Positions 9,730-48,924 of a DNA stretch of 64,000 nt are shown here, in pieces. A model generated the notes under the pieces. The model was not told where the DNA came from and did no database searches. It worked only from the letters and a program-made list of their open reading frames with translations. The stretch's first letter is position 1; each line of letters opens with the position of its first letter. Source of the DNA: a virus (taxonomy: Duplodnaviria; Heunggongvirae; Uroviricota; Caudoviricetes); IMG/VR virus record IMGVR_UViG_2695420475_000001; one strand, written 5' to 3'. A program made the position numbers and the translations under genes.

Positions 9730-9742
9730 TTAGTCTCCTGGA

Positions 9743-11470: not shown

Positions 11471-11488
11471 GAGCTAGAGATGTCCTTG

Positions 11489-13251: not shown

Positions 13252-13263
13252 CTTGCCTCCCGA

Positions 13264-14406: not shown

Positions 14407-14443
14407 AAGCTACGAAATGTCCTTGGATTAAAGGGAAACCGGG

Positions 14444-15190: not shown

Positions 15191-15241
15191 TGCATTCTCT
15201 TCTCTCCGAACCGTTTTCGGTCGTTCGTGAAACCGTCCTGG

Positions 15242-19439: not shown

Positions 19440-19468
19440 TGAGGGCCCAACCGTCCTTGTCTACATAC

Positions 19469-19957: not shown

Positions 19958-20105
19958 AAAGTGCTGCGTCCTGCGCCTGTAGGTCGAGGTAGTGGTTTAG
20001 CTCGGCTACGTCGTTTCGGATGAGTGCACGAACATCTTCAAGCGTCAGGTCGCTCCACAAAGGCTTTGTTGCCTTGTCATCGAAGCTAATTGACGGAGCG
20101 ATCAC
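19812..20105 (-). CDS. Hypothetical protein, first gene of the leftward structural operon
   Basis: 97-aa ORF; divergent intergenic region at 20106-20177. Confidence 0.35.
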   Translation of the reverse strand: MIAPSISFDDKATKPLWSDLTLEDVRALIRNDVAELNHYLDLQAQDAALCADGNRQPNYRLRTYIKAWEYAQDAHWSWYRKIRDARTTAAQGAQGLG

Positions 20106-20177
20106 CAGCTGTACCTCCTGTTACAAGTGTATCAGCAAACTCCATAGGTAAGCCTTCATCTACCCACATGAACCACT

Positions 20178-20423
20178 TTGGCGTTCATATGCTTTAAGCA
20201 CACGAAGGAAGGGATTGAGATGTTGAAGCCCGTGAAACGGCTCAGGAAGCGCCACCGCAAGTACATCTGGGTGGACCGCGAAGGCACAGTGTGGGTGTAC
20301 CTGAAGTCCGAGAGGAATTGGTGCACGCTCACCTGGGTTGATGGCTTCCCAGAGCTTCTGGCCACCATTGACGATGACGGCTGGCCAGACGGTCCGTTCT
20401 ACCCTGTGCCGGTGTTCTCATGA
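20178..20423 (+). CDS. Hypothetical small protein
   Basis: ORF; start of the rightward small-gene cluster. Confidence 0.35.
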   Translation: MAFICFKHTKEGIEMLKPVKRLRKRHRKYIWVDREGTVWVYLKSERNWCTLTWVDGFPELLATIDDDGWPDGPFYPVPVFS

Positions 20424-20650
20424 GCGCGCAAGTGCATCTTCTTGTCAAGTTTGAGAACGGTAAACCCTCTCTGGGGCTTGGCAATTCTGGCAACAGTCGT
20501 TCATACACAAAAAAGGGCGTAGCCAAGAACTACGCCGAATCTGCTGGAGGAGATATCCGTATTCTTACGGTGACTATCCCCGATGAAGGTGTGGTTGGTG
20601 AGGGCTTGTGGCCCGAGCTCCTCCCCCGAGTGGCGGTGAGCTGGTCATGA
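20420..20650 (+). CDS. Hypothetical small protein
   Basis: ORF with stop/start overlap to the preceding ORF (20178..20423). Confidence 0.35.
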   Translation: MSAQVHLLVKFENGKPSLGLGNSGNSRSYTKKGVAKNYAESAGGDIRILTVTIPDEGVVGEGLWPELLPRVAVSWS

Positions 20651-20916
20651 CCAGCACTGTTGTCCATTCAGACCAGCCGGTACCGCCATTCGGTTGGGAG
20701 TGGCGCGTTACCTGTGCAGGGCCGCATTTACTGGATGTGGCCCTGATGGACAGCGAAGAAGTTGTCCTCAGGAAAGAGGTCGATATCCGCATGGTGCAAA
20801 CCGAAGATGAGCTCCTGGACCTTGTGCACGGCAGGATGGCCCTAATGCGCTCAGAGGCAATCGCAGCATGCTCCATGTCCCACTGGCTCAAGAAGAACTG
20901 GGGAATCGAATGCTGA
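20608..20916 (+). CDS. Hypothetical protein (probable start 20647)
   Basis: ATGA overlap with the upstream stop. Confidence 0.4.
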   Translation: MARAPPPSGGELVMTSTVVHSDQPVPPFGWEWRVTCAGPHLLDVALMDSEEVVLRKEVDIRMVQTEDELLDLVHGRMALMRSEAIAACSMSHWLKKNWGIEC

Positions 20917-30480: not shown

Positions 30481-30620
30481 AACGTATTGGTTAGGTGTCC
30501 TAGACCTACATACAGCCCGCTGTACATCGGTCAAAGACATCTAACCCATACGGGCCGCAATGCGCGTATGTGGTTCTCCCCGTGCGCGTTTGGTGGTCCT
30601 AACGGGCTGACCAGCATCGA

Positions 30621-37250: not shown

Positions 37251-38651
37251 GTGACTATGCGAGCTGCCGTCTACCTGCGCCAATCAATGGATAGAGAAGG
37301 TGACGGACTAGCCGTCGAACGTCAGCGCGAAGACTGCCTGAGGATCTGCCGTGAGCGCGGCTGGGAACCCACCCAGTACGTCGACAACGACACTAGCGCC
37401 AGCAAGGGCCGTCGACCGTCGTATGAGCGCATGCTCGCTGATATACGCAGTGGTCGCATTGATGCCGTAGTGGTGTGGGATCTTGACCGCCTGCATCGTC
37501 AGCCCAAGGAGCTCGAGCAGTTCATTGAGCTGGCCGACGAGAAGCGGCTAGCACTGGCCACCGTAGGCGGGGACGCTGACCTCTCCACCGATAACGGTCG
37601 GCTGTTCGCGCGCATCAAAGGCGCGGTGGCTAGGGCTGAGGTAGAGCGGAAGTCGGCAAGGCAGAAGCGCGCATTTCTCCAGATGGCCCAATCTGGTAAA
37701 GGCTGGGGCCCGCGCGCATTCGGATACAACGGTGACCATGACAAGCCGAAGATCATCCTCAAGGAGGCTGAGGCCCTGAGGCGTGGCTACAAGATGCTCC
37801 TGTCGGGCGAAACCCTCTATTCAGTTGCAAAACACTGGAATGACGCTGGCCTAAAGACTCCACGGGGGAACCTGTTCAACGGCACCACGGTACGCCGGAT
37901 ACTTCAGAACCCACGCTACGCAGCCGTTCGTACATACCACGATGAAGTTGTAGGCGAAGGTAAATGGCCCGCGATCATTGACGAGACCACCTGGCAGGCT
38001 GTGAATGCCCTCCTTAGCGACCCATCACGCCATCAGCCGCGCCAGGTTCGCAAGTACGTCCTCGGCGGCCTACTCACCTGCAGCGAGTGTGGCCACAAGA
38101 TGTCTGTGGGCGTACAGCACCGGAAAGAGGGGAATGTCCCCATCTACCGGTGCAAGCATGTCAGCTGCGGCAAGGTCACCCGACGTGTTGAGCGCATGGA
38201 TGAATGGGTGAGGGAAATTGTCCTGCGCAGGATGTCGAGTCGGCATTGGGTTCCCGGGAATCAGGACAACCGGGAAAGGGCCCTCCAGCTACGGGAAGAG
38301 TTGGACACAATCAAGCAGCGAATGGACTCCCTCGCAATCGATTTCGCTGACGGAGAACTCACCGCAAGCCAGATGCGTATCGCTAATGAGCGCATGCAGG
38401 CGAAGCTGGATGACGTTGAGGACAAGCTGCGTCGAACCAATGTGCGGCCACTCCCCGATGGGATTCTCACCGCGAAGGACCGTGGCAAGTTTTACGACGA
38501 CCAGATGTCTCTGGATGCGAAACGAGCCCTCATCGAGGCCTTATGCAACTCGATCGTCGTGCATCCCCTCAACCTCAAGGGCCGCAGTGCTTCCCAGGCT
38601 CCGCTCGGGCATAACATCGATGTCCACTGGCACAAGCCCAGTAATGGCTGA
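37251..38651 (+). CDS. int: Large serine recombinase (serine integrase)
   Basis: N-terminal resolvase catalytic domain (AAVYLRQSMD...), recombinase domain and zinc ribbon (CSECGHKM...CKHVSCGK) with coiled-coil. Confidence 0.9.
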   Translation: MTMRAAVYLRQSMDREGDGLAVERQREDCLRICRERGWEPTQYVDNDTSASKGRRPSYERMLADIRSGRIDAVVVWDLDRLHRQPKELEQFIELADEKRLALATVGGDADLSTDNGRLFARIKGAVARAEVERKSARQKRAFLQMAQSGKGWGPRAFGYNGDHDKPKIILKEAEALRRGYKMLLSGETLYSVAKHWNDAGLKTPRGNLFNGTTVRRILQNPRYAAVRTYHDEVVGEGKWPAIIDETTWQAVNALLSDPSRHQPRQVRKYVLGGLLTCSECGHKMSVGVQHRKEGNVPIYRCKHVSCGKVTRRVERMDEWVREIVLRRMSSRHWVPGNQDNRERALQLREELDTIKQRMDSLAIDFADGELTASQMRIANERMQAKLDDVEDKLRRTNVRPLPDGILTAKDRGKFYDDQMSLDAKRALIEALCNSIVVHPLNLKGRSASQAPLGHNIDVHWHKPSNG

Positions 38652-38734: not shown

Positions 38735-39454
38735 TCATCGGGGTAATGCCCCATCCACTCGCTTCATGTCCTCCAATTCCTGAATGATCTCCATGATCCG
38801 ATCAAGCGCCACGGGCTTGTACTCCCACGCGTCAAGACCGACGTGAATCTGATTGATACGTGCTGGTTTGTTGCGCAGCGCAGCACCACGCCGCTTGGCC
38901 TCCCGGCCACCGATACTCAGCTTCTCCGGGCTATGCGTGTGGCCATGCAAGATGTAATGCCCATAATCAGGCAGACGCCACTCGGGATAGCGATCCTCAT
39001 CCGTGTGGTCGCCCGTGTACGGGAAGTGAGACAGCATCGCGGTTGTATGGCCATCTCTCAAGGGAATTCGAACTTTCGCGGCCAACTGAACACACTCGAA
39101 TGGTGCAGGCCTGTCGGGTTGATCCTGGCCAAGATAGATGGGCAACCACTTATGCGAGTCGCGGTGCAAAGGATGTGTGCCACAATGATTTCCCGGAATA
39201 CCACGCTTGCGGCCAGGGCGAGCACGCAGCCAATCCAGGGCCCTCAATTGCGCTGTCTTGGTGCCGGACGAAATGTCACCCAACACCCACACTACATCGT
39301 CAGGCGCAACCATGCTGTCCCAGTTACGGGCCAGCTGCGCGTCATGAGAGTCGATCTCCGCGCCTACGTAACGTGGTAGCACCCATCCGCGAGTGCGTTC
39401 CCTGGCCACCTTCTCGTGGCCGATATGTGGGTCAGATGTAAACCAGATATTCAT
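38735..39454 (-). CDS. Calcineurin-like metallophosphoesterase
   Basis: Motifs DPHIGH, GDISSG, GNHCG and GHTH. Confidence 0.75.
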   Translation of the reverse strand: MNIWFTSDPHIGHEKVARERTRGWVLPRYVGAEIDSHDAQLARNWDSMVAPDDVVWVLGDISSGTKTAQLRALDWLRARPGRKRGIPGNHCGTHPLHRDSHKWLPIYLGQDQPDRPAPFECVQLAAKVRIPLRDGHTTAMLSHFPYTGDHTDEDRYPEWRLPDYGHYILHGHTHSPEKLSIGGREAKRRGAALRNKPARINQIHVGLDAWEYKPVALDRIMEIIQELEDMKRVDGALPR

Positions 39455-40053
39455 TCGTTCTCACGGCCCTCACTTGAGGAGGCTGCCAATGCCCTGTAGA
39501 CCGTCGCCCGGCTCACCCCAAACGCCATCGCAATGGAGGTCGCTGATTCTCCGTTGACATGGAGGCGCTTGATCGCCGCAACTTCTGCAGAACCAAGGGC
39601 CCTCGGTCGACCAATATGTAAGCCTCCACCCCTACGTGCTTGACGAGGCCTACCACGGCGTTCGCTGTCGGGCCGACCTACTATGTTGTATTTCGGGTTT
39701 TCCGTCCGAATGGCGTCTAACTCAGCCTCAAGTAGAGCCGAGCGACTCGGGAACTGCTCCATTGTCGTTGATGCCACCTCGCGCCACCAACGCTTCTGGC
39801 GTGCGTGGCTATTCAGGCGCCCTCCTGGATTACAAGTCACACCAACGTAGAGAAGCTCGCCTTGTTCTGACCACATGCGATACAGGACATTCAGCGCTTC
39901 CTCCCCACCAGTTGGTGAGCAGTCTTGCGGAAGCGACTCCTCGATCTTCGCCAACACTTCAGTCAAAGTTGACAGGAGATTCCGAGCTTCATTCATGGAG
40001 CGCCCTATGTCACTAAGCGCGACAGTGGACCTAGAATGGGCTTCATCGCTCAC
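39451..40053 (-). CDS. GIY-YIG nuclease with C-terminal helix-turn-helix
   Basis: GELLYVGVT...R..H...ENPKYN motif; C-terminal resolvase-type HTH (SIAMAFGVSRATVYRAL). Confidence 0.6.
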   Translation of the reverse strand: MSDEAHSRSTVALSDIGRSMNEARNLLSTLTEVLAKIEESLPQDCSPTGGEEALNVLYRMWSEQGELLYVGVTCNPGGRLNSHARQKRWWREVASTTMEQFPSRSALLEAELDAIRTENPKYNIVGRPDSERRGRPRQARRGGGLHIGRPRALGSAEVAAIKRLHVNGESATSIAMAFGVSRATVYRALAASSSEGRENE

Positions 40054-40799
40054 CAGCCGAACTCCTTCGGTACATAGACTTGGTTCTGCGGTCGGATAAA
40101 GTCCGAATCCGCTGGCGGTTGGTCAGATTCTGTGATGCGGATCAGTAGACGCCAACCACGCTCAGTAGCCTGTGACGCCTGGTGGATGTTCCACCAATCC
40201 CATGAGTGCCAAATACCCTCTTGCGCAACCAGTTTCCGCAGAGTTGTGCAACCATCAATCCGGCGAGTTAATTCTGAGTAGAGCTGTTCGTCTTCGTCGT
40301 GCTCAATCGGCAGGTACAGTAATCCATCAATGAACACAGTTGGGCAGTCGTTTCCAACGTGCAGCGTGTGGTAACGCGGGTAATAGCCCTCAAGGGAACG
40401 GTAATTCTGCAGCGGAAGGGACGGCGTGCCCCAATTCGCTGGGGTCACGGTCTCGTCTGCAGCGCTGTAGCGCGGCACACCATCGGTATGCCACCCGGGA
40501 ATCGCAGGCCACCAACCAGGCATCAGCATAGAGACCTTAGTGTCCACGAAGATGTGCTTGTGGTCCCCCACAATTGGGGCTGACTGCAGGAGTCCGCGCA
40601 AGAGTGGACCTCCATAGAGCACAGCATTCGACAGGCTCGCGCGGCGCAGGTTCGGTGTCCCCTCGATTAGCGCGTGGTCGGATTCCGCTCTGGGCCCGAT
40701 CACCACAGGGTTGCGGTTAAACCAGTAGGCGGTCATAGCAGCTTCAGCTCCCCAGTAATCGGCGCGAGTTCGTCGGCGGTCGCTGGACCAATGGCACAA
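40050..40799 (-). CDS. Hypothetical protein, possible 2OG-Fe(II) oxygenase-like fold; probable start 40736
   Basis: HxD (WHTDG) and a downstream His. ATGA overlap with the Pth2 stop if the start is at 40736. Confidence 0.35.
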   Translation of the reverse strand: MCHWSSDRRRTRADYWGAEAAMTAYWFNRNPVVIGPRAESDHALIEGTPNLRRASLSNAVLYGGPLLRGLLQSAPIVGDHKHIFVDTKVSMLMPGWWPAIPGWHTDGVPRYSAADETVTPANWGTPSLPLQNYRSLEGYYPRYHTLHVGNDCPTVFIDGLLYLPIEHDEDEQLYSELTRRIDGCTTLRKLVAQEGIWHSWDWWNIHQASQATERGWRLLIRITESDQPPADSDFIRPQNQVYVPKEFGW

Positions 40800-41086
40800 C
40801 AGGTAGTTGTGAGCACGCCGTGGAACTCAGTCAATCCGTTGTCAGTAATCAATGAATTCGGGATTCCGGCCTTAACTGCCTTATCCCACAGCTCAATCAG
40901 CGCATCTTCGCTATCGACACGTACACATACCTTGGTGAAACTCCCCTGCAGCCACTCTTCAACGCGCGGATCCGAGAGGTATTCGAGCGTCGCAGCCAGC
41001 GATGCATGTGCGCCCTGTGCGACCATCTTGCCTGCACGCATACCAAGGTCTTTACGCATGACGATCATTTGCTTCAGCTCACTCAT
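40733..41086 (-). CDS. pth2: Peptidyl-tRNA hydrolase, PTH2 family
   Basis: 117 aa; MIVMRKDLGMRAGKMVAQGAHAS... typical Pth2 core. Confidence 0.7.
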   Translation of the reverse strand: MSELKQMIVMRKDLGMRAGKMVAQGAHASLAATLEYLSDPRVEEWLQGSFTKVCVRVDSEDALIELWDKAVKAGIPNSLITDNGLTEFHGVLTTTCCAIGPATADELAPITGELKLL

Positions 41087-41215
41087 CGCCGTTCACCTCC
41101 CCCATGATCTGAGCCCCGTCATACACGGTCACCGGGTCGTAGTCGCATGCCGAATCGCGGTATCCCTTCCCTGGGATTACCGGGTACTTCTCGAACCAGA
41201 ACCCCTCACCGGGCA

Positions 41216-42454
41216 CTAGGTTCCCTTCACATTCAGCACCTGGCGAAGCTCCGTGACAACCTCAACCAGAGGGGCGGCGTCACTCATCACGACGTCTATT
41301 GGCTTGTAGCAGGAAGGGATCTCGTCAATCCATTCCTCGCCGTGGCGGTACTCGATGCCTTGCATCTGGTCGGCCAGGTCTTCAAGGGTGAAGAGTTCCT
41401 TCGCCTTGGTGCGAGAGAATCGCCTCCCGGCACCGTGCGGTGCAGAGAACAGGCCATCCTTGTTGCCCCGACCCCGGACCACATAGGAGCGTGTCCCCAT
41501 CGAGCCAGGGATAAGTCCCAGCTTCCCCTCTGACGCATCGATAGCGCCCTTCCGGGTCAGCCATACCTTCCGCCCATCGATCTCAGTCTCAACCGTGTAG
41601 TTGTGGTGACAGTTCACGCGGTCGATCTCGACGCGCTGCGTTTGCACTCCAAGCCAATTCGCGAACACCTGGACGTAGCGGTCCATCATCTCGGCACGGT
41701 TCTCGTAGGCGAACTTTTGTGCCCACTGCAGATCCTTGATATAGCGATCGAACTCAGCGGTCCCCTCAGTGAGGTAAGCAAGATCCCGATTCGGCAAACG
41801 AAATTGAGGAGCGGCCTCGCCTGAGCACTTCTGTAGGTACTCATAGCGCGCAACGGCTACCTTAATGTGGCGCTGAGCGATCTTGTTGCCCACGCCCCTA
41901 CTTCCCGAGTGCAGGAACAGCCACACAGTATCTTCCAGGTCGACACACAGCTCGATGAAATGGTTACCGCCACCAAGTGAGCCCAACTGCTCCATCCACT
42001 TCGGGGAGTGAGACAGGTCTACATCCAGCTCGTTCTGAAGCCGGATGAGGCCCTCAATCCGATTACGTGTGAACGGGAACCGCTTAGTGTCCGAGTTATA
42101 GTTGCCTGGCGACAACGGGATTGCACCCTCGATGGCCACGCGCAAATCGGGCAGGCGGGGCATATCAGCCAACAGGGCGTCATCCATGATGTTGGCCCAC
42201 TCGTAGCGGGTCTTCACCGCGATCATGCCGCAGCCGATGTCCACGCCAACAGCGGCAGGAATCACAGCCCCCACGGTGGGGATGACCGTTCCAACAGCTG
42301 AACCCTTGCCACTGTGCGCATCAGGCATCAGCGCCATGTGCGGGTAGATGAACGGCAGCGAGGCCGTCTCCTTAGCCTGATCGATCGTCGTGTAGTCGAT
42401 CTCTGAGGCGAACGAGATGATGTTGTCACCAATGCGCTGGCTCAATTCCTTCAT
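41216..42454 (-). CDS. rtcB: RNA-splicing ligase RtcB
   Basis: 412 aa with conserved RtcB His/Cys metal-ligand motifs (DAHSGKGS, HNH, GAGR). Confidence 0.9.
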   Translation of the reverse strand: MKELSQRIGDNIISFASEIDYTTIDQAKETASLPFIYPHMALMPDAHSGKGSAVGTVIPTVGAVIPAAVGVDIGCGMIAVKTRYEWANIMDDALLADMPRLPDLRVAIEGAIPLSPGNYNSDTKRFPFTRNRIEGLIRLQNELDVDLSHSPKWMEQLGSLGGGNHFIELCVDLEDTVWLFLHSGSRGVGNKIAQRHIKVAVARYEYLQKCSGEAAPQFRLPNRDLAYLTEGTAEFDRYIKDLQWAQKFAYENRAEMMDRYVQVFANWLGVQTQRVEIDRVNCHHNYTVETEIDGRKVWLTRKGAIDASEGKLGLIPGSMGTRSYVVRGRGNKDGLFSAPHGAGRRFSRTKAKELFTLEDLADQMQGIEYRHGEEWIDEIPSCYKPIDVVMSDAAPLVEVVTELRQVLNVKGT

Positions 42455-42493
42455 ATACCAATGCTATTGAGCAATTCGGGGTTCATGTGGGTA

Positions 42494-42524
42494 CGAAAAA
42501 AGCCCCCAGCTTTCGCTGAGGGCT
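42494..42524 (-). terminator. Hairpin plus U-run (minus-strand sense) between the prfH-like gene and rtcB
   Basis: GCCCTCAGC-GAAA-GCTGGGGGC followed by TTTTTT in minus sense; immediately followed by the ACCCACATGAAC motif. Confidence 0.45.
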
Positions 42525-42608
42525 CTTCGAGTAGTCCATGCGGGAACCAAACCCGCACCAACACCTTGAGAGGGTGGTGTGCTCTCACTACACCAATGGA
42601 CCTTAGGG

Positions 42609-42947
42609 CTATTGCTCAACCCAATTGCCGGATTCACGAACCTCTGTCTTGAGGTTAACCGGCCACATATCACGCTCCACTTGGGCGCGTTGTAGGTCTT
42701 CGCGACCGACCTGACGCTTCACCCATAGTTGGAACTTCGGTGAGTTCGCCATTCGCCTGAACGCAGACTGCTTGTTCTGCAGCTGGCTACGCTCCTCGCG
42801 TGACTCACCCACTGCGCCAGACGGCTCATGCGTGATGCGCACACCCGTTTCGCGCTTGTTCTGGTTTTGACCGCCTTTGCCCCCAGATCGGAATGTGTCC
42901 ACACGACAATCCGAGAGGGTGACAGACAGTACCCGTTCTCTACTCAC
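42609..42947 (-). CDS. GGQ-domain peptide-release-factor-like protein (PrfH/ArfB-like)
   Basis: DTFRSGGKGGQNQNKRETGVRITHEPSG matches the class-I release-factor GGQ catalytic loop; 112 aa; adjacent to rtcB. Confidence 0.7.
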   Translation of the reverse strand: MSRERVLSVTLSDCRVDTFRSGGKGGQNQNKRETGVRITHEPSGAVGESREERSQLQNKQSAFRRMANSPKFQLWVKRQVGREDLQRAQVERDMWPVNLKTEVRESGNWVEQ

Positions 42948-43021
42948 GTCAAGTCGACCGGATTTGAACCGGCGTCCCCCGCCGTGACAGGGCGGTGCTT
43001 TAGACCTCTAAGCTACGACTC
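42948..43021 (-). tRNA. tRNA-Asp (anticodon GTC)
   Basis: Manually folded cloverleaf; anticodon stem CCGCC/GGCGG, T-loop TTCAAAT. Confidence 0.75.
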
Positions 43022-43129
43022 GAAAGAACGTTTGCCCCCAGTGGTTTTCGAGGCCACCGGGGCAGGTACGAACAACCTGAGCCAACTTTCTGGGAATCAA
43101 ACCCTGGAGCTGCTTGGCCAAAACTCCCG

Positions 43130-43201
43130 TGGAGAAACGGGGAATCGAACCCCGGACTCTGGTGTGCAAAACCAGTGCTTTACCAACTAAGCTATGTCCC
43201 C
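43130..43201 (-). tRNA. tRNA-Ala (anticodon TGC) with G3:U70
   Basis: Cloverleaf; acceptor GGGGACA/TTTCTCC including the G3·U70 Ala identity pair. Confidence 0.7.
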
Positions 43202-43227
43202 ATATTGGCCCGGAAAGGACGTTGTTA

Positions 43228-43656
43228 ATGAAGCTCAACCGCATTACAGAACTCGTAGCCAACACGACCGGCTTCGACGGCCTATCACTCCAGATCATTA
43301 AGCACGTGGATGCCGTCGAGATCTTGGACTCTGGTGTCCTCAGAGTTATCTCACGCTCAGTCCACGATGACGCTACTTGCGAAGACAGCCTCTACCTAGC
43401 ACCGGGCGAATGGAAGTCGTTCGCTCGTAGGGGCACGACAGTAGTGATCGAGTCCGAGGACCAGGTCTTTGACTTTGAGATGGGCCTCTCGACCGAAGAA
43501 TGCGTCAACTTCATCGCCGCCTATTTCGAGCGAGCGGACGGTTACGCTCCAGGCAATGCGCGCGACCTCGCCCGCGAGATAGTCTACAACCAACCGGTTG
43601 GTGTTGTGTACGGTTCCAACCACGTCAAGTTTAGGTTCGTTTCAAGCCCGAACTAG
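43228..43656 (+). CDS. Hypothetical protein embedded in the tRNA array (opposite strand)
   Basis: In-frame Met within ORF 43114..43656, preceded by GGAAAGGA. Confidence 0.35.
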   Translation: MKLNRITELVANTTGFDGLSLQIIKHVDAVEILDSGVLRVISRSVHDDATCEDSLYLAPGEWKSFARRGTTVVIESEDQVFDFEMGLSTEECVNFIAAYFERADGYAPGNARDLAREIVYNQPVGVVYGSNHVKFRFVSSPN

Positions 43657-43680
43657 TCGCCCAGGATCAAATTACTCGCG

Positions 43681-43754
43681 AGCCGCATCGAGGCCTCGAA
43701 CCCCGTACCTCTTCGTTACTAAGGAAGCGCTCTAACCTGGTGAGCTAATGCGGC
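43681..43754 (-). tRNA. tRNA-Thr-like (anticodon AGT, unusual A34)
   Basis: Cloverleaf closely resembling bacterial tRNA-Thr; anticodon loop TTAGTAA. Confidence 0.55.
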
Positions 43755-43758
43755 AAAG

Positions 43759-43829
43759 TACCTTGCGAGAGAATTGAACTCCCATCCTCGGGGTGTAAAC
43801 CCGGTGCCCTTCCGTTGGACGAGCAAGGC
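43759..43829 (-). tRNA. tRNA-Val (anticodon TAC)
   Basis: Cloverleaf; loop TTTACAC. Confidence 0.7.
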
Positions 43830-43954
43830 ATATTGAGCTTTTGGTTGAGGGTGCCAATGCTGCAGCGAGAGGTCCCTGGCGGATGCTCTATCCGCGCACA
43901 AACCTCCGGCGACAACCGAAGTCTCCACCGTAGGGTCGCCCATCCCAAGGCGTC

Positions 43955-44029
43955 GAACGAGTGACCAGATTCGAACTGGCACGACCTGTTTGGAAGACAG
44001 GGATGCTAAACCGTTAAACATCACACTCG
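43955..44029 (-). tRNA. tRNA-Gly (anticodon TCC)
   Basis: Cloverleaf; loop CTTCCAA, T-loop TTCGAAT. Confidence 0.7.
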
Positions 44030-44077
44030 CTTGAGTATGCAGATCGTAGGCTTCAAGGGTACGAAATGCGTACTGTT

Positions 44078-44148
44078 GCACGACCGACAGGAGTTGAACC
44101 TGCTTCCACGCGGCTTAGGAGGCCGTTGGTCTGTCCGAGTTACAGTCG
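44078..44148 (-). tRNA. tRNA-Arg (anticodon CCT), poorly formed D-arm
   Basis: Acceptor, anticodon and T arms fold; the D-arm is weak. Confidence 0.5.
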
Positions 44149-44155
44149 TAAGTTG

Positions 44156-44227
44156 GTAAGCCCGCAGTGAGTTGAACACTGGTTTCCGCCTTATCAGAGC
44201 GGTGTCCTAACCATTGGACGACGAGCT
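44156..44227 (-). tRNA. tRNA-Ile (anticodon GAT)
   Basis: Cloverleaf; loop CTGATAA. Confidence 0.7.
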
Positions 44228-44228
44228 A

Positions 44229-44301
44229 GTGGGTCTTACAGGGCTCGAACCTGTGTCCCCGGATTAAGAGTCCGGTGCTAATGCCATCTCAGCTAAAAAC
44301 C
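44229..44301 (-). tRNA. tRNA-Lys (anticodon CTT)
   Basis: Cloverleaf; loop CTCTTAA. Confidence 0.75.
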
Positions 44302-44314
44302 CGAGTTTTTGTGA

Positions 44315-44386
44315 GTCCACCCGGCAGGACTCGAACCTGCGTCTATGGATTAAAAGTCCACAGCTAAACCATCTCAGCTACGGGAG
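44315..44386 (-). tRNA. tRNA-Lys (anticodon TTT)
   Basis: Cloverleaf; loop CTTTTAA. Confidence 0.75.
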
Positions 44387-44957
44387 GGTACGTGACCTGG
44401 GGGTCGAACCCAGACTTTGCAGGGTTTGAGCCTGCTGCTTCTTCCTGATTGAGCGAGTCACGCTTGCTTTTCATATAATCTCTGTGCCGCTTCGCATTGC
44501 CCGCGCGACAGATTTCGCACCGGCACCCGTTCTGGTACGCCTTACGCTCGCCACAAATCGCCGGACCAATTTTGTATGGTCCGCGAACGGTGCCGCCGCG
44601 TCGAGCCGCATTCCGGGCGTCACTCCACACTCGCTGAGCCTCTTGACATACGCTGCACAAGCACTTGGCCTTTGACCATGCATACGTCGAGCCATGGGTG
44701 ATTCCCGTGTTTTCGACCGCTGTTTTGACTCGATGATGCTCACGACAAAGCAGCTGACACTTCTCAATCTCCGCGAGATGCAAGGGATTCTTGAGATTCA
44801 GGCATTTACCCGGCTCGAAACTCTTGGTTGCCGGGTCGATGTGGTCTATCTCTAAATCGTCTTCGGTACCACACTCCACACACTTACCACCCAGATAGGC
44901 AACGACTTCGGCTCGCTTACGGTGGTAGTACGCGATCTGATATTCAGCATTAGACAT
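44364..44957 (-). CDS. HNH homing endonuclease
   Basis: GKCVECGTEDDLEIDHIDP...N...LLCREHH motif. The 3' end overlaps two tRNA genes. Confidence 0.7.
   Translation of the reverse strand: MSNAEYQIAYYHRKRAEVVAYLGGKCVECGTEDDLEIDHIDPATKSFEPGKCLNLKNPLHLAEIEKCQLLCREHHRVKTAVENTGITHGSTYAWSKAKCLCSVCQEAQRVWSDARNAARRGGTVRGPYKIGPAICGERKAYQNGCRCEICRAGNAKRHRDYMKSKRDSLNQEEAAGSNPAKSGFDPQVTYPPVAEMV
44388..44462 (-). tRNA. Type-I tRNA with Leu anticodon CAA (atypical: short variable arm)
   Basis: Perfect anticodon stem GCAGG/CCTGC, loop CTCAAAC; 5-nt variable loop; D-arm paralogous to the 45004..45077 tRNA. Confidence 0.55.
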
Positions 44958-45003
44958 TATATTCTATTGTCCCACCGCATATTTCGATCATGTGGGTGAT
45001 ACG

Positions 45004-45077
45004 TAGCCCCGGAGTGATTCGAACACTCACTTGCTGGTTTCTAAGACCAGTGCTTCTGCCAGTTGAGCGACGGAGCC
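45004..45077 (-). tRNA. Type-I tRNA with Leu anticodon TAG (atypical: short variable arm)
   Basis: Anticodon stem CTGGT/ACCAG, loop CTTAGAA, canonical T-arm GAGTG-TTCGAAT-CACTC. Confidence 0.55.
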
Positions 45078-45134
45078 ATTGTGCCGATATTGCCGCGTCG
45101 GCTTTACGGTGACTCCTACTCACCGAGCGCGTCG

Positions 45135-45206
45135 AGACGAAGGCCGGGATCGAACCGGCGTGGGTCAGGGTTGCAGCCTGCCAGCTAGCCACTCACTCAC
45201 TTCGCC
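45135..45206 (-). tRNA. tRNA-Cys (anticodon GCA)
   Basis: Cloverleaf; loop CTGCAAC; 3-bp D-stem. Confidence 0.55.
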
Positions 45207-45216
45207 TTAAGCCGCT

Positions 45217-45381
45217 ATTCTGCAGCGGGTGCTGCCTTCTTCGCCGGGGCCTTCTTGGCTACCGGCTTCTCTTCCACTGCGTAGTGGAAGTCCTCAAGGG
45301 CATCCATACGGTCAATCAGGTCGTTTACCGCCTTGACGATGTCGATATGGGCGATGCCCGTGCGCAGCTTGTCAGTCATTG
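45217..45381 (-). CDS. Small basic protein with Lys/Ala/Pro-rich tail (54 aa)
   Basis: MTDKLRTGIAHIDIVKAVNDLIDRMDALEDFHYAVEEKPVAKKAPAKKAAPAAE; not in the ORF track because it is under 60 aa. Confidence 0.3.
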
Positions 45382-45929
45382 GTCGCCTCTGCTAGTCGTT
45401 TTCTGTAGTCGCGCTTACGATTTCTTGCTGCTAACCGACAGAGGCCGCAGCGGCACCCCCATCGGTCATACATTGTGCTTGTCCCATGGCGGGTTGGCCG
45501 CGTGCCATGCGTGAGCGGCATTTGGGCTGTGGTCTTGTCGCGATGACACCTCTTACAGAGGGGTTGACACTTCCTCAGCTCTGCCTGGAGTCGCGGCTCG
45601 GCCCAACTCCATATTCGGTGTGATGATTTCTCCATCGGATCGATGTGGTCGATCTCGAGTTGCCCAGTCGCACCGCAACTCACACACTTTCTGCCCTCAA
45701 AGTACCTAGCACGCCTTGCGGACTGCCGCAGTCGTTCGTATTCTCGTCGGCGGACAGGATCTTTGATTGGCATGTAACCCCTGTTTATATTGGGGTGACC
45801 GGACGGTACTGACCCGTCATCCTCGCGGTCACATCGCGAGATTCTCAACCTTTGAACTACGGTCACAGCCCCGTTGACAGGATTCGAACCTGCATGCGTT
45901 GCGCCTTCGTAAGGCGGTGGGCGCTCCAT
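45372..45929 (-). CDS. HNH homing endonuclease (probable start 45773)
   Basis: KCVSCGATGQLEIDHIDP...CKRCH motif. The N-terminal extension of the ORF would overlap tRNA-His, so the true start is likely at the MPIKDP Met. Confidence 0.7.
   Translation of the reverse strand: MERPPPYEGATHAGSNPVNGAVTVVQRLRISRCDREDDGSVPSGHPNINRGYMPIKDPVRRREYERLRQSARRARYFEGRKCVSCGATGQLEIDHIDPMEKSSHRIWSWAEPRLQAELRKCQPLCKRCHRDKTTAQMPLTHGTRPTRHGTSTMYDRWGCRCGLCRLAARNRKRDYRKRLAEATND
45794..45866 (-). tRNA. tRNA-His (anticodon GTG) with non-canonical T-loop
   Basis: Good acceptor, D, 6-bp anticodon and T stems; T-loop GTCAGTA lacks the TTC consensus. Confidence 0.55.
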
Positions 45930-45943
45930 TGCCCAACAACGGG
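45869..45943 (-). tRNA. tRNA-Arg (anticodon ACG)
   Basis: Cloverleaf; loop TTACGAA; D-stem GGGC/GCCC. Confidence 0.65.
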
Positions 45944-46080
45944 AGCAGGCGGTTTAACGTGGAGTGCCCAGCACGGAGCAGTTTTTCGTGATGTCTCAAC
46001 ACGGATGGTTCTTCCAGTTGTGAACCAACAACATTCATGGGCCAGTTTCTACCTCAGCCGTGTACTGGCAACCCTCGTCC

Positions 46081-46155
46081 GTGGCGGGTACCGGATTTGA
46101 ACCGGTGGTCTCAAGGTTATGAGCCTTGCGAGATGGCCGAGCTTCTCTAACCCGC
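46081..46155 (-). tRNA. tRNA-Met (anticodon CAT)
   Basis: Cloverleaf; loop CTCATAA; A1·C72 mismatch. Confidence 0.7.
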
Positions 46156-46281
46156 TATGTATGGTGACTCATTCCGACAGGACAGTTCGTCGCCTACCGT
46201 ATCCGCGCGAGTCAACGCGACCTTTTACGTGGAGTGCCCAGCTTTTCACCAGTAGCTGTGGAACCTGGTTTCCCTTACACG

Positions 46282-46355
46282 CCGACTCTCCCCGAATCGA
46301 ACGGGGGCGCACCGGGCTTCAACCGGTCGCTCTTACCTAACTGAGCTAAGAGTCG
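46282..46355 (-). tRNA. tRNA-Phe (anticodon GAA)
   Basis: Cloverleaf; D-arm GCTC/GAGC, loop TTGAAGC. Confidence 0.8.
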
Positions 46356-46648
46356 ATTGTTAGAGGCTGAGAGTACACCCGCTATCGAGAACCTTTCGCA
46401 GCATTATGGATTCGCTGCTTCTCCAGGCCATCCCTGACCTAGTTCTCACGCCTGGTCCGTTACCGTGAACCACTCGTTATGCCGAAAGCTACTCTGCGGC
46501 TTTCCCTTCGCGATGAGATGGCCGTCTCACTGCTGCAGTACTTGCCTACAAACCGCACTCACCTTGCGGGACTATTGTGCGGCCCAGATTCCCGAGGGTC
46601 TGGGATTAAGGCGCTTTTGCTCCTCGGCAGGGGAAGGACTTTTGCTTT

Positions 46649-46721
46649 TTATTGACGACGGGACTTGAACCCGCACATCCAGTTTCCAATAACTGGTGAC
46701 CTACCGTTGGTCTACGTCATT
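46649..46721 (-). tRNA. tRNA-Pro (anticodon TGG), copy 1
   Basis: Cloverleaf; D-stem GACC/GGTC, loop ATTGGAA. Confidence 0.55.
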
Positions 46722-47175
46722 CTCACAGCGGAGAATGATTTGACTAGAGACGTGCTTCCCCATGAAGTTCCGAACCCTTTTGGGGCACAGAATGCTTCAC
46801 GCCTCTCGTGCTTTCGCCTGGCGGGGCTAATTACACTCTCTCTCAACCGCATTGCGAGCCGTCGCCCGACGCGAGATCGATCATGGAACACGCCCTTGCT
46901 TGCGAGGCTCAGACTCAGTTCCTTCCGTTCCACAGGGCGCTTGTTCGATAGCCTTTTCACACGCACGTACGTGATGGTGTCCTCAGCACTTTGCCGTTGG
47001 ACGGGGCGTAACTCGCAACCTGGCAGCCATCACTGACTGCTCAAGGATTGGATTGCATGGATTGCCCTTGCGGGTGGTGGGTTGTCACCCCACCTTTCAC
47101 CACCTTGCGGTGGCTTATGGGCCATGCCCCGAATGTCTTAACTATATCTCCCACAACAGAGTTCGTGTGGGTGAG

Positions 47176-47258
47176 CGGAGAGGCAGGTATTCGAAACCTA
47201 CTGCGAACAGCGCTCCGGTTAGCAACCGGGCCTAGTCACCTAACTAGTTGCGCTCTCC
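47176..47258 (-). tRNA. tRNA-Ser (anticodon GCT), class II with long variable arm
   Basis: Loop TTGCTAA, variable stem GCG/CGC, T-loop TTCGAAT. Confidence 0.6.
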
Positions 47259-47338
47259 AAAATCCACCCCTTCGGCGTCGACACTGGACTCGACGCACCT
47301 GTATTCACTCTTAGCCATGGCCAGGCGGGTGGAGAACG

Positions 47339-47423
47339 AGGAAGGTAGAGGAATCGAACCCCCGAGTTTTCAGGCTCGCCCCGGTATTCGACGCCGGTTG
47401 CCGACCATTCAGCGGTGCCTTCC
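47339..47423 (-). tRNA. tRNA-Ser (anticodon CGA), class II
   Basis: Loop GTCGAAT in stem CCGG/CCGG; variable arm CGAG-loop-CTCG. Confidence 0.55.
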
Positions 47424-47503
47424 ATATGCCCCATTTTGATAACGCAACTGGAGCGGCTGCGGGCAGTCAACTCATGGCAGGTACCTACCGGTTGACTCAA
47501 AAG

Positions 47504-47576
47504 CTGATGACCCTGGATTCGAACCAAGACCTACGTGGTTCAGAGCCACGTGTGCTGCCGGTTACACCAATCATCA
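47504..47576 (-). tRNA. tRNA-Gln (anticodon CTG)
   Basis: Cloverleaf; loop CTCTGAA. Confidence 0.75.
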
Positions 47577-47640
47577 ATGCTGAGACTGGCCTTGCGGGCG
47601 GGGGAACGTTTCTGCTTGCCGCAAGCCTTCAGTTCGTTCC

Positions 47641-47717
47641 ACACCAGTCTCATTGTCTCGCCGTCAGGAGTCGAACCTGCACACCCGAAGGAGCAGATTT
47701 ACAGTCTGCGTTGATCG
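47641..47717 (-). tRNA. tRNA-Tyr (anticodon GTA)
   Basis: Anticodon arm GCAGACTGTAAATCTGC identical to E. coli tRNA-Tyr; variable arm with TTCG tetraloop; D-arm weak. Confidence 0.55.
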
Positions 47718-47769
47718 CCTATTCGCGACGAGATTGGAGCCAGTGCTCGGCTTCTCGCCGATTCGCATG

Positions 47770-47842
47770 CACACACTGACATGGCTGGCTTGGAAGGATT
47801 CGAACCTACACCTCGCGAGTTAACAGCTCGCTGCTCTACCAA
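47770..47842 (-). tRNA. tRNA-Asn (anticodon GTT)
   Basis: Cloverleaf; loop CTGTTAA. Confidence 0.7.
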
Positions 47843-47932
47843 TTGAGCTACAGGCCAAGAGCGAGGGTGGCCAGTGTCAGCGCGCTTTCTGACCTGTGCG
47901 ACCCTCTTGCCCGTCCTGCTTAGAGATGAGAC

Positions 47933-47971
47933 GGAGCCGAAAACACCCGTACGGTCATCATACGTGATGAC
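47933..47971 (-). terminator. Perfect 7-bp hairpin (GTCATCA-TACG-TGATGAC) with a downstream U-run on the minus strand, directly after tRNA-Pro
   Basis: Inverted repeat followed in minus sense by CGTACGGGTGTTTTCGG. Confidence 0.35.
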
Positions 47972-47976
47972 CAACG

Positions 47977-48051
47977 TCTGCCAGGCGCGATTTGAACACG
48001 CGATCTCCTGGACCCAAACCAGGCGGGATGGCCAAACTTCCCTACAAGCAG
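47977..48051 (-). tRNA. tRNA-Pro (anticodon TGG), copy 2
   Basis: Cloverleaf; loop TTTGGGT. Confidence 0.75.
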
Positions 48052-48742
48052 ATGATGGACGACACGGCCCAGGTACGGCACCTCAGGTCGGATCCTTTTT
48101 ATCGGAACCTACTGCGGGATTACCCTGCCATCCATATGGCCACCGGCATCCCGATGGCCGCGCGGAGATGTCTCTCCACATTCCCCGTACGACCGACGCT
48201 TTCCTGGAGCTACCTGTACTTGCGCATGTGGTCTGACAGCCGGGGCCACACTGACTAACGAGGATGTTCTCCCTTTGCACTACCGGCAGCCTACGCCGCC
48301 AGTCGGGGCTCGAACCCGAATCTTCCTCTCGTGGAGCTGCCCGGAATTGAACCGGGATGTTACGTGACTTGTCACAGTCTTCTACGTGCGTAGTCCACCG
48401 ATTGGGTCGGTTGGGGTGGACGCCTGTCCGAATCGAGACCTCAGACTCTCGACCGATCTTCCAGCACAGTTTGTCGCCTGAGAGCTGGTCATTGCGAGTT
48501 CCCCGTATTCGCGACGGTGGATTGGTAAACGGAACGGGTAAACCGTTGTACCCCACCGGACTACGCAGCTAGGGCGTAGTCGGACTGAGCAGAAGCTGCA
48601 GTTATTGTGGTTGCACTGTTACGGGCGTTGCGGGCCCGGCACGCTTCTCAGTAAGTTGACACGCAATCGAATACCTGTCAGCCCCATTAAAGTATCTATA
48701 TCTCTATGGAGTTTTCAAATGTCATGCCACACAGAGGCATTG

Positions 48743-48813
48743 CACGGGCGGAGAGAATCGAACTCCCACTAACGGGTTTGGAATCCGTTGTCCTACCTTT
48801 GGACCACGCCCAT
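48743..48813 (-). tRNA. tRNA-Trp (anticodon CCA)
   Basis: Cloverleaf similar to bacterial tRNA-Trp; loop TTCCAAA. Confidence 0.7.
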
Positions 48814-48885: not shown

Positions 48886-48924
48886 ATAAAAACGGGCCCC
48901 GATCCACTGAGGAACCGGGGCCCA
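48886..48924 (-). terminator. Rho-independent terminator (minus strand)
   Basis: 8-bp GC stem GGGCCCCG...CGGGGCCC followed by TTTTTATT in minus sense. Confidence 0.6.

Follow-up and report, generated by a model that had tools for sequence, protein, structure and literature searches.

A translation-support region of a temperate Mycobacterium abscessus phage: a tRNA array with an embedded GGQ-domain protein, next to RtcB and Pth2 genes

Introduction

What connects a large set of phage tRNA genes with the genes for an RtcB RNA ligase, a Pth2-type peptidyl-tRNA hydrolase and a short protein carrying the GGQ loop of peptide chain release factors? This question is raised by a 64-kb stretch of tailed-phage DNA (IMG/VR record IMGVR_UViG_2695420475_000001; hereafter the window, for which array, gene and hairpin features are given with their strand in Table 1), in which a block of ~8.8 kb combines tRNAs, a transfer-messenger RNA (tmRNA), a GOLLD RNA, the GGQ protein, which we refer to as the mini release factor (mini-RF), RtcB and Pth2. 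A sequence-only reading of this DNA had regarded the GGQ protein as PrfH- or ArfB-like, had joined it to RtcB in the manner of the bacterial RtcB-PrfH pairs, and had taken the whole to be undescribed as a unit for a temperate actinophage. We find that the block is already annotated and published for phages of cluster M/MabI, which makes it an ordinary finding with some unannotated details, and that its genes are neighbours rather than parts of an obligate machine.

The block in cluster M and MabI phages

Sequence comparison identifies the block as the translation-support region of a temperate M. abscessus phage of cluster MabI, or cluster M. Its nucleotide identity is 96% to prophiT49-2, 91% to prophi86-1 and 88% to prophiGD54-2, and the cluster M phages Rey, MrMagoo, Bongo and PegLeg match it in patches, at 75-80% identity. 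Most of the window is 95-96% identical to prophiT49-2 and prophi86-1, the rest of it matches the same phages, and membership in cluster M/MabI is borne out both by nucleotide similarity and by synteny of the array with those of Rey, Bongo and Nanosmite. The abstract published by Pope and co-workers in 2014 reportedly speaks of cluster M tRNA sets, a tmRNA and RtcB. The GenBank records of prophiT49-2, prophi86-1 and prophiGD54-2 already use the names ‘RtcB-like RNA ligase’, ‘RF-1 peptide chain release factor’ and ‘peptidyl tRNA hydrolase’, and the tmRNA of these MabI prophages carries a tag identical to that of the window tmRNA. Moreover, Dedrick et al. (2021, PMC8092301) assigned the MabI tRNA array, tmRNA and release factor to the early lytic block and interpreted them as “translational reprogramming” in the course of lytic growth. 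With the genes named in GenBank, and the array, tmRNA and release factor described in print, the view that such a unit is new for a temperate actinophage cannot be upheld.

Positions 15001-30518 of the window match positions 1-15913 of prophi86-1 in reverse, a serine integrase gene is present (Table 1), and the left and right prophage arms are apparently joined near window position ~30.5 kb. Because the arms of related prophages seem to meet there, the window gives the impression of phage DNA in its excised, or virion (attP), form and not of an integrated prophage.

The mini release factor

The mini-RF matches the RF-1 profile PF00472 (E=1e-18, 67.7 bits against a cut-off of 35) over residues 8-69 only, which represent the GGQ domain, and matches phrog_3122 over its full length (E=4e-60). 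Its layout is that of release factor (RF) domain 3 followed by a C-terminal helix and beta-hairpin specific to the family: the AlphaFold (AF2) model, with a predicted local distance difference test score (pLDDT) of 88, shows a GGQ domain with its three-stranded sheet and helix, followed by a long helix at residues 70-93 and a beta-hairpin at residues 102-111. A word-index search with this protein retrieved 1542 related proteins, the best 120 of which are all 97-142 aa in length. The family is common in metagenomes and is represented in 270 phage records, 208 of them from mycobacteriophages, mostly cluster C myoviruses of ~155 kb, where it is also annotated as RF-1. Among 52 diverse homologues (108-142 aa), residues D13, C14, G23, G25, G26, Q27, W75 and W109 are invariant, and conservation spans the entire mini-RF, including its C-terminal 44 residues.

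The open reading frame (ORF) starts with a GTG that directly abuts the 3′ end of tRNA-Asp (0 nt), and tRNA-Glu follows 6 nt past the stop codon. Since tRNA-Asp occupies the very next base and there is an in-frame stop upstream, the ORF cannot be longer. The gene is thus located inside the array, between tRNA-Asp and tRNA-Glu, and not downstream of it as had been thought, although the tRNA array does lie beside the three protein-coding genes.

Assignment of the mini-RF to PrfH was tried and rejected. Against the curated profile TIGR03072 it scores 54.1 bits, far below the cut-off of 166.65, and aligns to profile positions 105-179 of 200 only; the N-terminal recognition domain of PrfH (RF domain 2/4-like) is absent, and the GGQ domain starts at residue 8. 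ArfB fares no better: the NF006718 profile yields 24.5 bits against a cut-off of 100, over residues 6-40 only, ArfB chains in the Protein Data Bank (PDB) give 24 bits, and there is no basic tail, the tail of the mini-RF (residues 68-112; predicted helix plus beta-hairpin, pLDDT 76-93) being near neutral, with 8 K/R versus 7 D/E. The ranking of folds is also against these assignments, as a Foldseek search with the model placed RF2/RF1 domain 3 first (E=9e-6), PrfH at rank 37 and mtRF-R at rank 43, and did not return ArfB among the top 50. The prfA and prfB models, in turn, are matched only at positions ~209-282, with 62-69 bits against cut-offs of 370-423 (for prfB, 68.9 bits at positions 223-282 only). 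Judging from these profile and model comparisons, the mini-RF consists of an RF domain 3 and an appendage peculiar to its family, is neither a PrfH nor an ArfB, and would be unable to read stop codons; the PrfH-/ArfB-like identity proposed from the letters alone did not survive the profile search and the structural model.

We also considered the tryptophan of the ‘MWP’ motif as a counterpart of the switch-loop tryptophan of RF2. This was unsupported: an hhalign alignment with Salmonella RF2 stops at residue 68. One search aligned the mini-RF family profile to RF2 residues 237-330, and the C-terminal 69 residues of the mini-RF alone yielded no release factor match in the PDB.

The tight junction with a tRNA is seen again in an unrelated array, on the metagenomic phage contig L010, where tRNA-Gln ends at position 8000, the ATG of the mini-RF begins at 8001, and a tRNA-Glu(CTC) gene overlaps the last 15 nt of the ORF; tRNA-Glu(CTC) is thus found downstream of the mini-RF in both the window and L010. 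A ribosome-binding site could fit only within the tRNA, and we therefore infer that the mini-RF mRNA is essentially leaderless and is released by tRNA 3′ processing. Leaderless mRNAs are translated well by mycobacteria. The mini-RF and tRNA-Glu perhaps constitute a mobile cassette. On L010, RtcB was not found within 8 kb of the mini-RF. The same contig has a gene for a PF09414-type RNA ligase (1-332), a possible functional analogue of RtcB, ~5.6 kb upstream of the first tRNA of its array.

RtcB and Pth2

The three ORFs had been placed on the minus strand with exact coordinates, and Pfam matches to PF01981, PF01139 and PF00472 confirm the earlier recognition of Pth2, RtcB and the GGQ domain, respectively. 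In RtcB, residues 26-411 match PF01139 (E=4.6e-107) over profile positions 1-426 of 426. In P. horikoshii RtcB, the residues that bind metal and GTP and the histidine that is guanylylated are D95, C98, N202, H203, H234, H329 and H404. All five active-site motifs of the phage protein, namely DIGCG (D72, C75), GGGNHF (N164, H165), HSGSRG (H182), CHHN (H284) and PHGAGR (H340), are intact and align with those of the P. horikoshii enzyme (4dwr/1uc2), H340 being the presumed guanylylated histidine. Its placement in RtcB2, the PrfH-associated subfamily (TIGR03073), was rejected at 141.5 bits against a cut-off of 271.8, and there is no prfH operon. RtcB homologues are found in 629 phage records, including those of Gordonia phages and of mycobacteriophages from clusters K and M. 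In a sample of 60 spread over these 629 records there is no cluster C phage of 150-160 kb, and the main carriers of the mini-RF therefore appear to be without RtcB.

The Pth2 protein matches PF01981 over its full length (E=8e-32, 110 bits against a cut-off of 23), scores above the cut-off with TIGR00283 (96.3 versus 82 bits) and below it with NF003314 (109 versus 126 bits), and aligns end to end with the solved archaeal Pth2 structure 2zv3 (E=8e-23). It is rarer in phages, with 40 records that include Myrna, Baka, WXIN and several jumbo phages.

The tRNA array

The array extends for 6.3 kb, from tRNA-Trp to tRNA-Glu (42531-48813), with all RNA genes on the minus strand. In this interval ARAGORN reports the tmRNA, 21 ordinary tRNAs and one tRNA-like element, the anticodon loop of which is abnormal, and it finds no tRNA or tmRNA genes outside the array in the 64-kb window; Rfam families likewise have no match outside the block, to which all structured RNAs of the window are confined. 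Of the 21 tRNAs, 20 reach or exceed the Rfam gathering score, the exception being tRNA-Tyr, which is known from ARAGORN only. Together they cover 19 isotypes, serine being the only one missing from the ARAGORN set. When all tRNA-shaped elements are counted together, their number is 24, so that the earlier report of a large array of phage origin with about 24 tRNAs was a fair one. The tmRNA possesses both a tRNA-like domain, detected with RF00023, and a tag reading frame, which according to ARAGORN encodes AASAQSDYALAA.

Both tRNA-Leu genes are of class I size (75-77 nt, with a 5-nt variable loop), without the long arm usual in bacterial tRNA-Leu, and tRNA-Tyr, which the Rfam tRNA model fails to detect, combines an atypical D arm with no more than a short variable hairpin. 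The same forms of tRNA-Leu and tRNA-Tyr are kept in Rey, Bongo and prophiT49-2.

The array tRNAs include the readers of the commonest codons, namely Glu CTC, Lys CTT, Gln CTG, Asp, Phe and Asn, as read qualitatively from a codon-usage table built from a crude set of ORFs filtered by third-position GC content (GC3). With tRNAs present for the commonest codons, the set fits replacement of the host pool better than the filling of rare codons alone.

Two terminator-like hairpins bracket the array. The downstream one follows tRNA-Glu directly, 41 nt ahead of the RtcB start, and Rey, Nanosmite and Bongo have a hairpin with a U-run at the equivalent position, the stem sequences being all different; a consensus terminator scanner did not list the hairpin of the window. 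Bracketed in this way, the array with the mini-RF looks like one transcription unit, and RtcB, Pth2 and the oxygenase-like gene that follows them look like the next. A scan for sigma-70-type promoters showed no enrichment over shuffles.

A tRNA-Ser(CGA)-like gene

The missing serine isotype may be supplied by a gene found via a weak match to the tRNA-Sec model in the seemingly empty interval between tRNA-Gln and GOLLD. This candidate class II tRNA is identical in prophiT49-2 and 74-89% conserved in prophi86-1, prophiGD54-2, Rey and Bongo, and its anticodon loop reads CGA (Ser). When its cloverleaf was fitted to five phages (the window, prophi86-1, prophiGD54-2, Rey and Bongo), 98.3% of cells were paired and six pairs showed compensatory changes, while none of 500 shuffles reached this score and slid controls gave 38-62%. 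The gene went undetected by ARAGORN in all six relatives and is unannotated in their GenBank records. If active, the predicted gene would complete the set of 20 isotypes.

The counterparts of the tRNA-Ser-like gene are at 10952-11057 in locus L001, 10092-10184 in L004, 9115-9200 in L002, 8621-8703 in L005 and 6998-7066 in L007 of the related phages compared; in Rey, it sits under a ‘hypothetical protein’ coding sequence. It has its oddities, such as 3 nt between the acceptor and D stems and a 4-bp T stem, and the window copy additionally has U73 and a C7-A66 mismatch.

GOLLD RNA

The GOLLD RNA matches RF02032 over the full model (positions 1-416 of 416), with 197.6 bits against a gathering score of 150. 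Upstream, a further ~330 nt (to ~47136) show 70-75% conservation with Bongo, Nanosmite and prophiGD54-2; as GOLLD has been described as having a less conserved 5′ domain, which this segment fits, the RNA is probably ~770 nt in total length. All six cluster M/MabI loci tested carry GOLLD, which is unannotated in the GenBank records of related phages. Its linker contains the insert that ARAGORN lists as ‘tRNA-???(tg)’, a tRNA-like element whose anticodon loop (UAUUGGAA) is 6 or 8 nt long. In Rey, the loop of the homologous insert has the normal 7 nt and the anticodon GGA; that insert is annotated as tRNA-Ser, though it is without the long variable arm, and the GOLLD RNAs of Bongo and Nanosmite are without the insert.

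The occurrence of GOLLD in phage and mycobacterial tRNA arrays was reportedly noted by Weinberg in 2009 and by Morgado in 2020, the latter being cited by Behra et al. Mycobacterial tRNA arrays can hold GOLLD, itself enclosing a pseudo-tRNA, as well as HNH genes (Behra et al., PMC6582537, PMC9569102), and tRNAs occur in the linker of GOLLD, which forms a 14-mer cage; assembly of this nanocage is known for GOLLD env-38 only (PMC12286853).

How the block may work

We lean towards seeing the block as a loosely assembled translation-maintenance kit, the parts of which independently sustain phage protein synthesis in lytic growth despite shortage of, or damage to, host tRNAs or ribosomes. The 6.3-kb array would be transcribed as one precursor between the hairpins and cut by host tRNA-processing enzymes; its anatomy suggests that processing would yield tRNAs for 19 amino acids (20 if the tRNA-Ser-like gene is active), the tmRNA, GOLLD and a leaderless mini-RF mRNA. 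The phage tRNAs may replace or top up the host pool. Stalled ribosomes could be freed by the phage tmRNA and also by the mini-RF, whose GGQ loop, to judge by homology of the catalytic domain, would hydrolyse peptidyl-tRNA without a stop codon. Pth2, by its homology, would recycle peptidyl-tRNA that has dropped off, and RtcB, which is homologous to known ligases and has intact catalytic residues, would reseal tRNA or rRNA with the 2′,3′-cyclic phosphate and 5′-OH ends that metal-independent ribonucleases produce. The sequence data show the identities of the parts, their intact catalytic motifs, the conserved anatomy and the distribution; what we infer in this scheme are the substrates of the mini-RF and RtcB, expression from one precursor, the leaderless mRNA and the link to host defence. 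A counter-defence role is plausible. Mycobacteriophage tRNAs have already been proposed to counter host tRNases, and replacement of a depleted pool, which tRNAs for the commonest codons would fit, has been proposed for cluster C1 phages (PMC10264068). In bacteria, translational stress is a setting in which long tRNA arrays, an HNH gene and rtcB are regulated together (PMC8421152).

In favour of such a kit is the mini-RF itself, wedged 0 nt from the upstream tRNA both here and in the unrelated metagenomic array. The order Trp-tmRNA-Asn...Asp-Glu-(terminator)-RtcB is kept across MabI phages, Rey, Nanosmite and Bongo. Several observations, however, weigh against it. All of its parts in this phage are known from sequence alone; the mini-RF has no recognisable ribosome-targeting element (neither a decoding domain nor a basic tail), and its substrate is a guess. 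PIN-domain VapC toxins, the best-known mycobacterial tRNases, leave 5′-phosphate and 3′-OH ends, which RtcB cannot join. The GC content of the window is 57%, that of M. abscessus is ~64%, and plain codon adaptation would therefore explain part of the tRNA set. The mini-RF is located between tRNA-Asp and tRNA-Glu in MabI phages only, and not in Rey, Bongo or Nanosmite; Pth2 is absent from prophiGD54-2; and the mini-RF of the cluster C phage Wally has DnaE and RecA on either side, in an 18-kb stretch free of tRNA and RtcB genes. With the parts assorting independently in this way, joint action is not required.

An obligate linkage of RtcB, mini-RF and Pth2 was indeed rejected. Neither RtcB nor Pth2 is present within 8-9 kb of the mini-RF in Wally, or within 8 kb of it on three metagenomic phage contigs of ~85 kb, and in phage WXIN, a carrier of the mini-RF as well as of Pth2, the annotated features up to 16 kb from Pth2 include no RtcB, mini-RF or tRNA. 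Related phages also vary in whether they have a DprA-like gene, small membrane proteins and phosphatases.

Could RtcB and the GGQ protein nevertheless be a phage version of RtcB2-PrfH, releasing the peptide from ribosomes cut in 16S rRNA at the decoding centre and then religating the rRNA? In MabI phages, no more than 160 nt separate the two, and among known short GGQ factors that act independently of stop codons PrfH comes closest (54 bits, and 55 bits in a second search), yet it ranks below full-length RF1/RF2, and we regard this explanation as highly improbable. PrfH recognises damaged ribosomes via its N-terminal domain (Tian et al. 2022, PMC9304027), which is absent from the mini-RF, and tRNA-Asp and the in-frame stop block any upstream extension that could hold it. 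The curated scores fall short for both partners (54 versus 167 bits for PrfH, 141 versus 272 bits for RtcB2), the fold search puts RF1/RF2 above PrfH, and a terminator conserved in position separates the two genes. The mini-RF is carried by ~200 cluster C phages, none of which is among the sampled RtcB records, and most of the 629 RtcB records are without a mini-RF. Since, in addition, the mini-RF is mostly far from any RtcB and cluster M phages have RtcB without a GGQ gene at this place, the RtcB-PrfH pair envisaged in the sequence-only reading does not stand, and the RtcB2-PrfH family assignment is, at the level of profiles and gene distribution, largely refuted.

Adaptation of codon usage or capacity, by which a phage of 57% GC would be tuned to a host of higher GC and late synthesis would be boosted, with RtcB, Pth2 and the mini-RF as housekeeping helpers and no link to nucleases or defence, seems unlikely to us. 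It would agree with the GC content of the window and with the many array tRNAs for codons that end in A or U (Thr AGT, Val TAC, Gly TCC, Ala TGC, Pro TGG, Leu TAG and CAA, and Lys TTT), and Dedrick et al. (2021, PMC8092301) mention translational reprogramming only; yet the array also supplies tRNAs for the most frequent G/C-ending codons of the phage, which the host is expected to decode well, a ligase for cyclic-phosphate/5′-OH breaks would be purposeless unless RNA is cut, and codon compensation was judged a poor fit in cluster C1 mycobacteriophages (PMC10264068). We would give even less weight to the view that there is no functional unit at all, and that a hot-spot of homing endonucleases and recombination has brought Pth2, the mini-RF, the oxygenase-like gene and the orphan ORF together by accident. 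Phages that are 88-96% identical do differ here, with two HNH genes and the orphan ORF unique to the window, tRNA-Glu(TTC) lost, Pth2 absent from prophiGD54-2 and the DprA-like gene variable; the distributions of RtcB, mini-RF and Pth2 (629, 270 and 40 phage records) are separate; and HNH genes are known companions of mycobacterial tRNA arrays (PMC9569102). Chance insertion, however, does not predict that all accessory proteins of recognisable function should act on tRNA or the ribosome, that RtcB should keep its position at the array end across cluster M, or that the mini-RF should be embedded between tRNAs in two unrelated arrays.

Returning to the translation-maintenance kit, it can be extended by a proposal that we advance tentatively, and that is conceivable rather than probable: phrog_3122 proteins may form a new class of stand-alone peptidyl-tRNA release or rescue factor, distinct from ArfB, PrfH and mtRF-R, in which the C-terminal helix and hairpin would find the target. 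In some phages, such a factor would be made from a leaderless mRNA excised from a tRNA precursor and, alongside phage tRNAs, tmRNA and perhaps a GOLLD cage, would defeat host systems that cut tRNAs and thereby stall ribosomes.

Other genes in and beside the array

Two related HNH genes lie between the tRNAs, and none is present there in the closest relatives, which is evidence of ongoing homing-endonuclease traffic in the array. The 3′ end of the HNH ORF next to tRNA-Leu(CAA) reads through this tRNA into tRNA-Lys(TTT), and the ORF represents an insertion that is absent at this place from the loci of the closest relatives (L001, L002 and L004). The orphan plus-strand ORF is absent from prophiT49-2, prophi86-1 and prophiGD54-2, has no match in Pfam (tested as a longer 180-aa ORF), NCBIfam, PHROGs or PADLOC, and has three homologues among 5.8 billion proteins, with 57-99% identity and all of 142 aa. 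In prophiT49-2, there is a 1-nt gap at the site of this ORF, and its tRNA-Glu(TTC) is on the other side of tRNA-Ala. The sequence-only reading had missed both HNH genes and this ORF, as well as the tmRNA, the full-length GOLLD with its tRNA-like insert and the tRNA-Ser(CGA)-like gene.

The oxygenase-like gene noted earlier is most likely the one at 40050-40736, whose start overlaps the stop of Pth2 by 4 nt. Its product has no match in Pfam, NCBIfam or PADLOC, and H87, D89, H127, H189, R200 and R204 are invariant in its 41 homologues, so that the HxD...H set noted earlier does hold. The oxygenase part of that description is less secure: with an AF2 model of pLDDT 92, the Foldseek matches are weak (best E=7e-4, TM-scores of 0.3-0.43), though consistent, nearly all of them being 2OG-Fe(II) oxygenases, among them ColD, GriE, proline hydroxylases and EctD. 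The oxygenase-like label suggested by this model is reasonable but unproven.

Downstream of the oxygenase-like gene is a GIY-YIG nuclease fused to a resolvase-type helix-turn-helix domain, in place of which the relatives have unrelated hypothetical genes, and further on a calcineurin-like phosphoesterase, annotated as MRE11-like in relatives. Searches of all block proteins against the PADLOC defence and anti-defence families gave nothing except a trivial GIY-YIG similarity.

Table 1. Positions of the RNA genes, protein-coding genes and hairpins discussed in the text, numbered along the 64-kb window
Feature	Position	Strand	Basis
Serine integrase	37251-38651
Calcineurin-like phosphoesterase	38735-39454	-
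GIY-YIG nuclease with resolvase-type helix-turn-helix	39451-40053	-
2OG-Fe(II)-oxygenase-like protein, phrog_1843, 228 aa	40050-40736	-	phrog_1843 E=2e-71; P0121 100% identical, 228 aa
Pth2-type (archaeal/eukaryotic type) peptidyl-tRNA hydrolase, 117 aa	40733-41086	-	PF01981
RtcB RNA 3′-phosphate/5′-OH ligase, 412 aa	41216-42454	-	PF01139
Intrinsic-terminator-like hairpin with U6	42496-42523	-	dG -24.2 kcal/mol, z=-5.07; 0/200 shuffles as stable
tRNA-Glu(CTC)	42531-42602	-	ARAGORN; Rfam 53.7 bits
mini-RF, 112 aa	42609-42947	-	PF00472, phrog_3122, AF2 model
tRNA-Asp(GTC)	42948-43022	-	ARAGORN and Rfam
tRNA-Ala(TGC)	43129-43201	-	ARAGORN and Rfam
Orphan ORF between tRNA-Ala and tRNA-Thr, 141 aa	43231-43656	+	ORF call
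tRNA-Thr(AGT)	43680-43754	-	ARAGORN and Rfam
tRNA-Val(TAC)	43758-43829	-	ARAGORN and Rfam
tRNA-Gly(TCC)	43955-44030	-	ARAGORN and Rfam
tRNA-Ile(GAT)	44154-44228	-	ARAGORN and Rfam
tRNA-Lys(CTT)	44229-44302	-	ARAGORN and Rfam
tRNA-Lys(TTT)	44315-44387	-	ARAGORN and Rfam
HNH homing-endonuclease ORF	44364-44957	-	phrog_4234 E=6.5e-32
tRNA-Leu(CAA)	44387-44463	-	ARAGORN and Rfam
tRNA-Leu(TAG)	45003-45077	-	ARAGORN and Rfam
tRNA-Cys(GCA)	45134-45206	-	ARAGORN and Rfam
Small ORF with Lys/Ala-rich tail, 54 aa	45215-45379	-	L001, L002 and L004 have an annotated ORF of equal size here
Second HNH endonuclease, 133 aa from internal Met	45372-45773	-	PF01844; phrog_4234 E=1e-41, full length
tRNA-His(GTG)	45791-45866	-	ARAGORN and Rfam
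tRNA-Arg(ACG)	45868-45943	-	ARAGORN and Rfam
tRNA-Met(CAT)	46081-46156	-	ARAGORN and Rfam
tRNA-Phe(GAA)	46281-46355	-	ARAGORN and Rfam
GOLLD RNA	46364-47136	-	RF02032 match 46364-46807 and probable 5′ domain
tRNA-like insert in GOLLD linker	46650-46721	-	ARAGORN
tRNA-Ser(CGA)-like gene, class II, long variable arm (predicted)	~47340-47423	-	tRNA-Sec model 25.3 bits; conservation; covariation
tRNA-Gln(CTG)	47503-47576	-	ARAGORN and Rfam
tRNA-Tyr(GTA)	47655-47732	-	ARAGORN only
tRNA-Asn(GTT)	47782-47857	-	ARAGORN and Rfam
tRNA-Pro(TGG)	47976-48051	-	ARAGORN and Rfam
tmRNA, tag peptide AASAQSDYALAA then stop	48331-48685	-	ARAGORN; RF00023 80.7 bits versus gathering score 47
tRNA-Trp(CCA), first gene of the array	48742-48813	-	ARAGORN and Rfam
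Terminator-like hairpin with U-run just upstream of the array	48893-48924	-	13 pairs (9 G-C); dG -25 kcal/mol, z=-3.96

Significance of the locus

As a discovery, the block matters little, being a near-copy of cluster M/MabI regions that have been deposited, annotated and discussed. What it adds to annotation is the tRNA-Ser-like gene that would complete the isotype set, the GOLLD RNA, the terminator-like hairpins that bracket the array and the zero-gap junction between a tRNA and the mini-RF. Its value is rather that of an experimental handle, with the parts present together in genetically tractable mycobacteriophages, some of which are of therapeutic interest for M. abscessus. We know of no phage mini-RF, Pth2, RtcB or GOLLD with an experimentally shown role in infection, and mycobacterial hosts are rich in toxins that cleave tRNA and rRNA. 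The function of the phage mini-RF family and that of GOLLD are of modest interest, and the locus is convenient for tests of both, as well as useful for annotation of this phage group.

Comparison with known systems

Comparison with the corresponding regions of MabI and cluster M phages (Bongo, PegLeg and Rey; prophiGD54-2, prophi86-1 and prophiT49-2) shows the same Trp-tmRNA-Asn...Asp-Glu-RtcB order and the same position of GOLLD, and the RF-1 and Pth2 genes are as in the MabI prophages. From its closest relatives the window differs only locally, by the addition of two HNH genes and the orphan plus-strand ORF, and in comparison with prophiT49-2 it is without tRNA-Glu(TTC) and without gene 140. 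Its GOLLD resembles those already described (Weinberg 2009; Morgado 2020; Behra 2019; Kretsch 2025) in being full-length, in its location within a tRNA array, in the tRNA-like linker insert and in having HNH genes nearby, and there is no substantive difference.

Among release factors, domain 3 of RF1/RF2 provides the best matches to the mini-RF in both sequence and fold, with 33% identity over the GGQ domain. Unlike RF1 and RF2, however, the mini-RF is without domains 1, 2 and 4 and hence without the PxT/SPF tripeptide motifs, and its C-terminal 44 residues have no detectable similarity to RF2. With ArfB (YaeJ), ICT1 and mtRF-R (C12orf65) it shares its small size (112 versus 115-166 aa), the GGQ-only composition and, presumably, codon-independent hydrolysis. 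The sequence match to ArfB, however, is limited to ~25 residues (24 bits), and the basic tail of ArfB enters the mRNA channel, whereas the tail of the mini-RF is near neutral and has invariant tryptophans.

The resemblance to the RtcB2-PrfH pair (PMC9304027) consists in an RtcB-family ligase near a short GGQ protein without stop-codon-reading motifs; the window is nevertheless without the PrfH N-terminal domain, the RtcB2 subfamily, a shared operon and co-inheritance. Also comparable are the repair of PrrC-cut tRNA-Lys by T4 Pnkp/Rnl1 and the cyanobacterial arrays (PMC8421152), in which, as may be the case here, a repair ligase is coupled to tRNA supply, either genetically or through regulation, under stress or defence, with the difference from the T4 system that RtcB joins 3′-phosphate and 5′-OH ends directly, with no kinase/phosphatase step.

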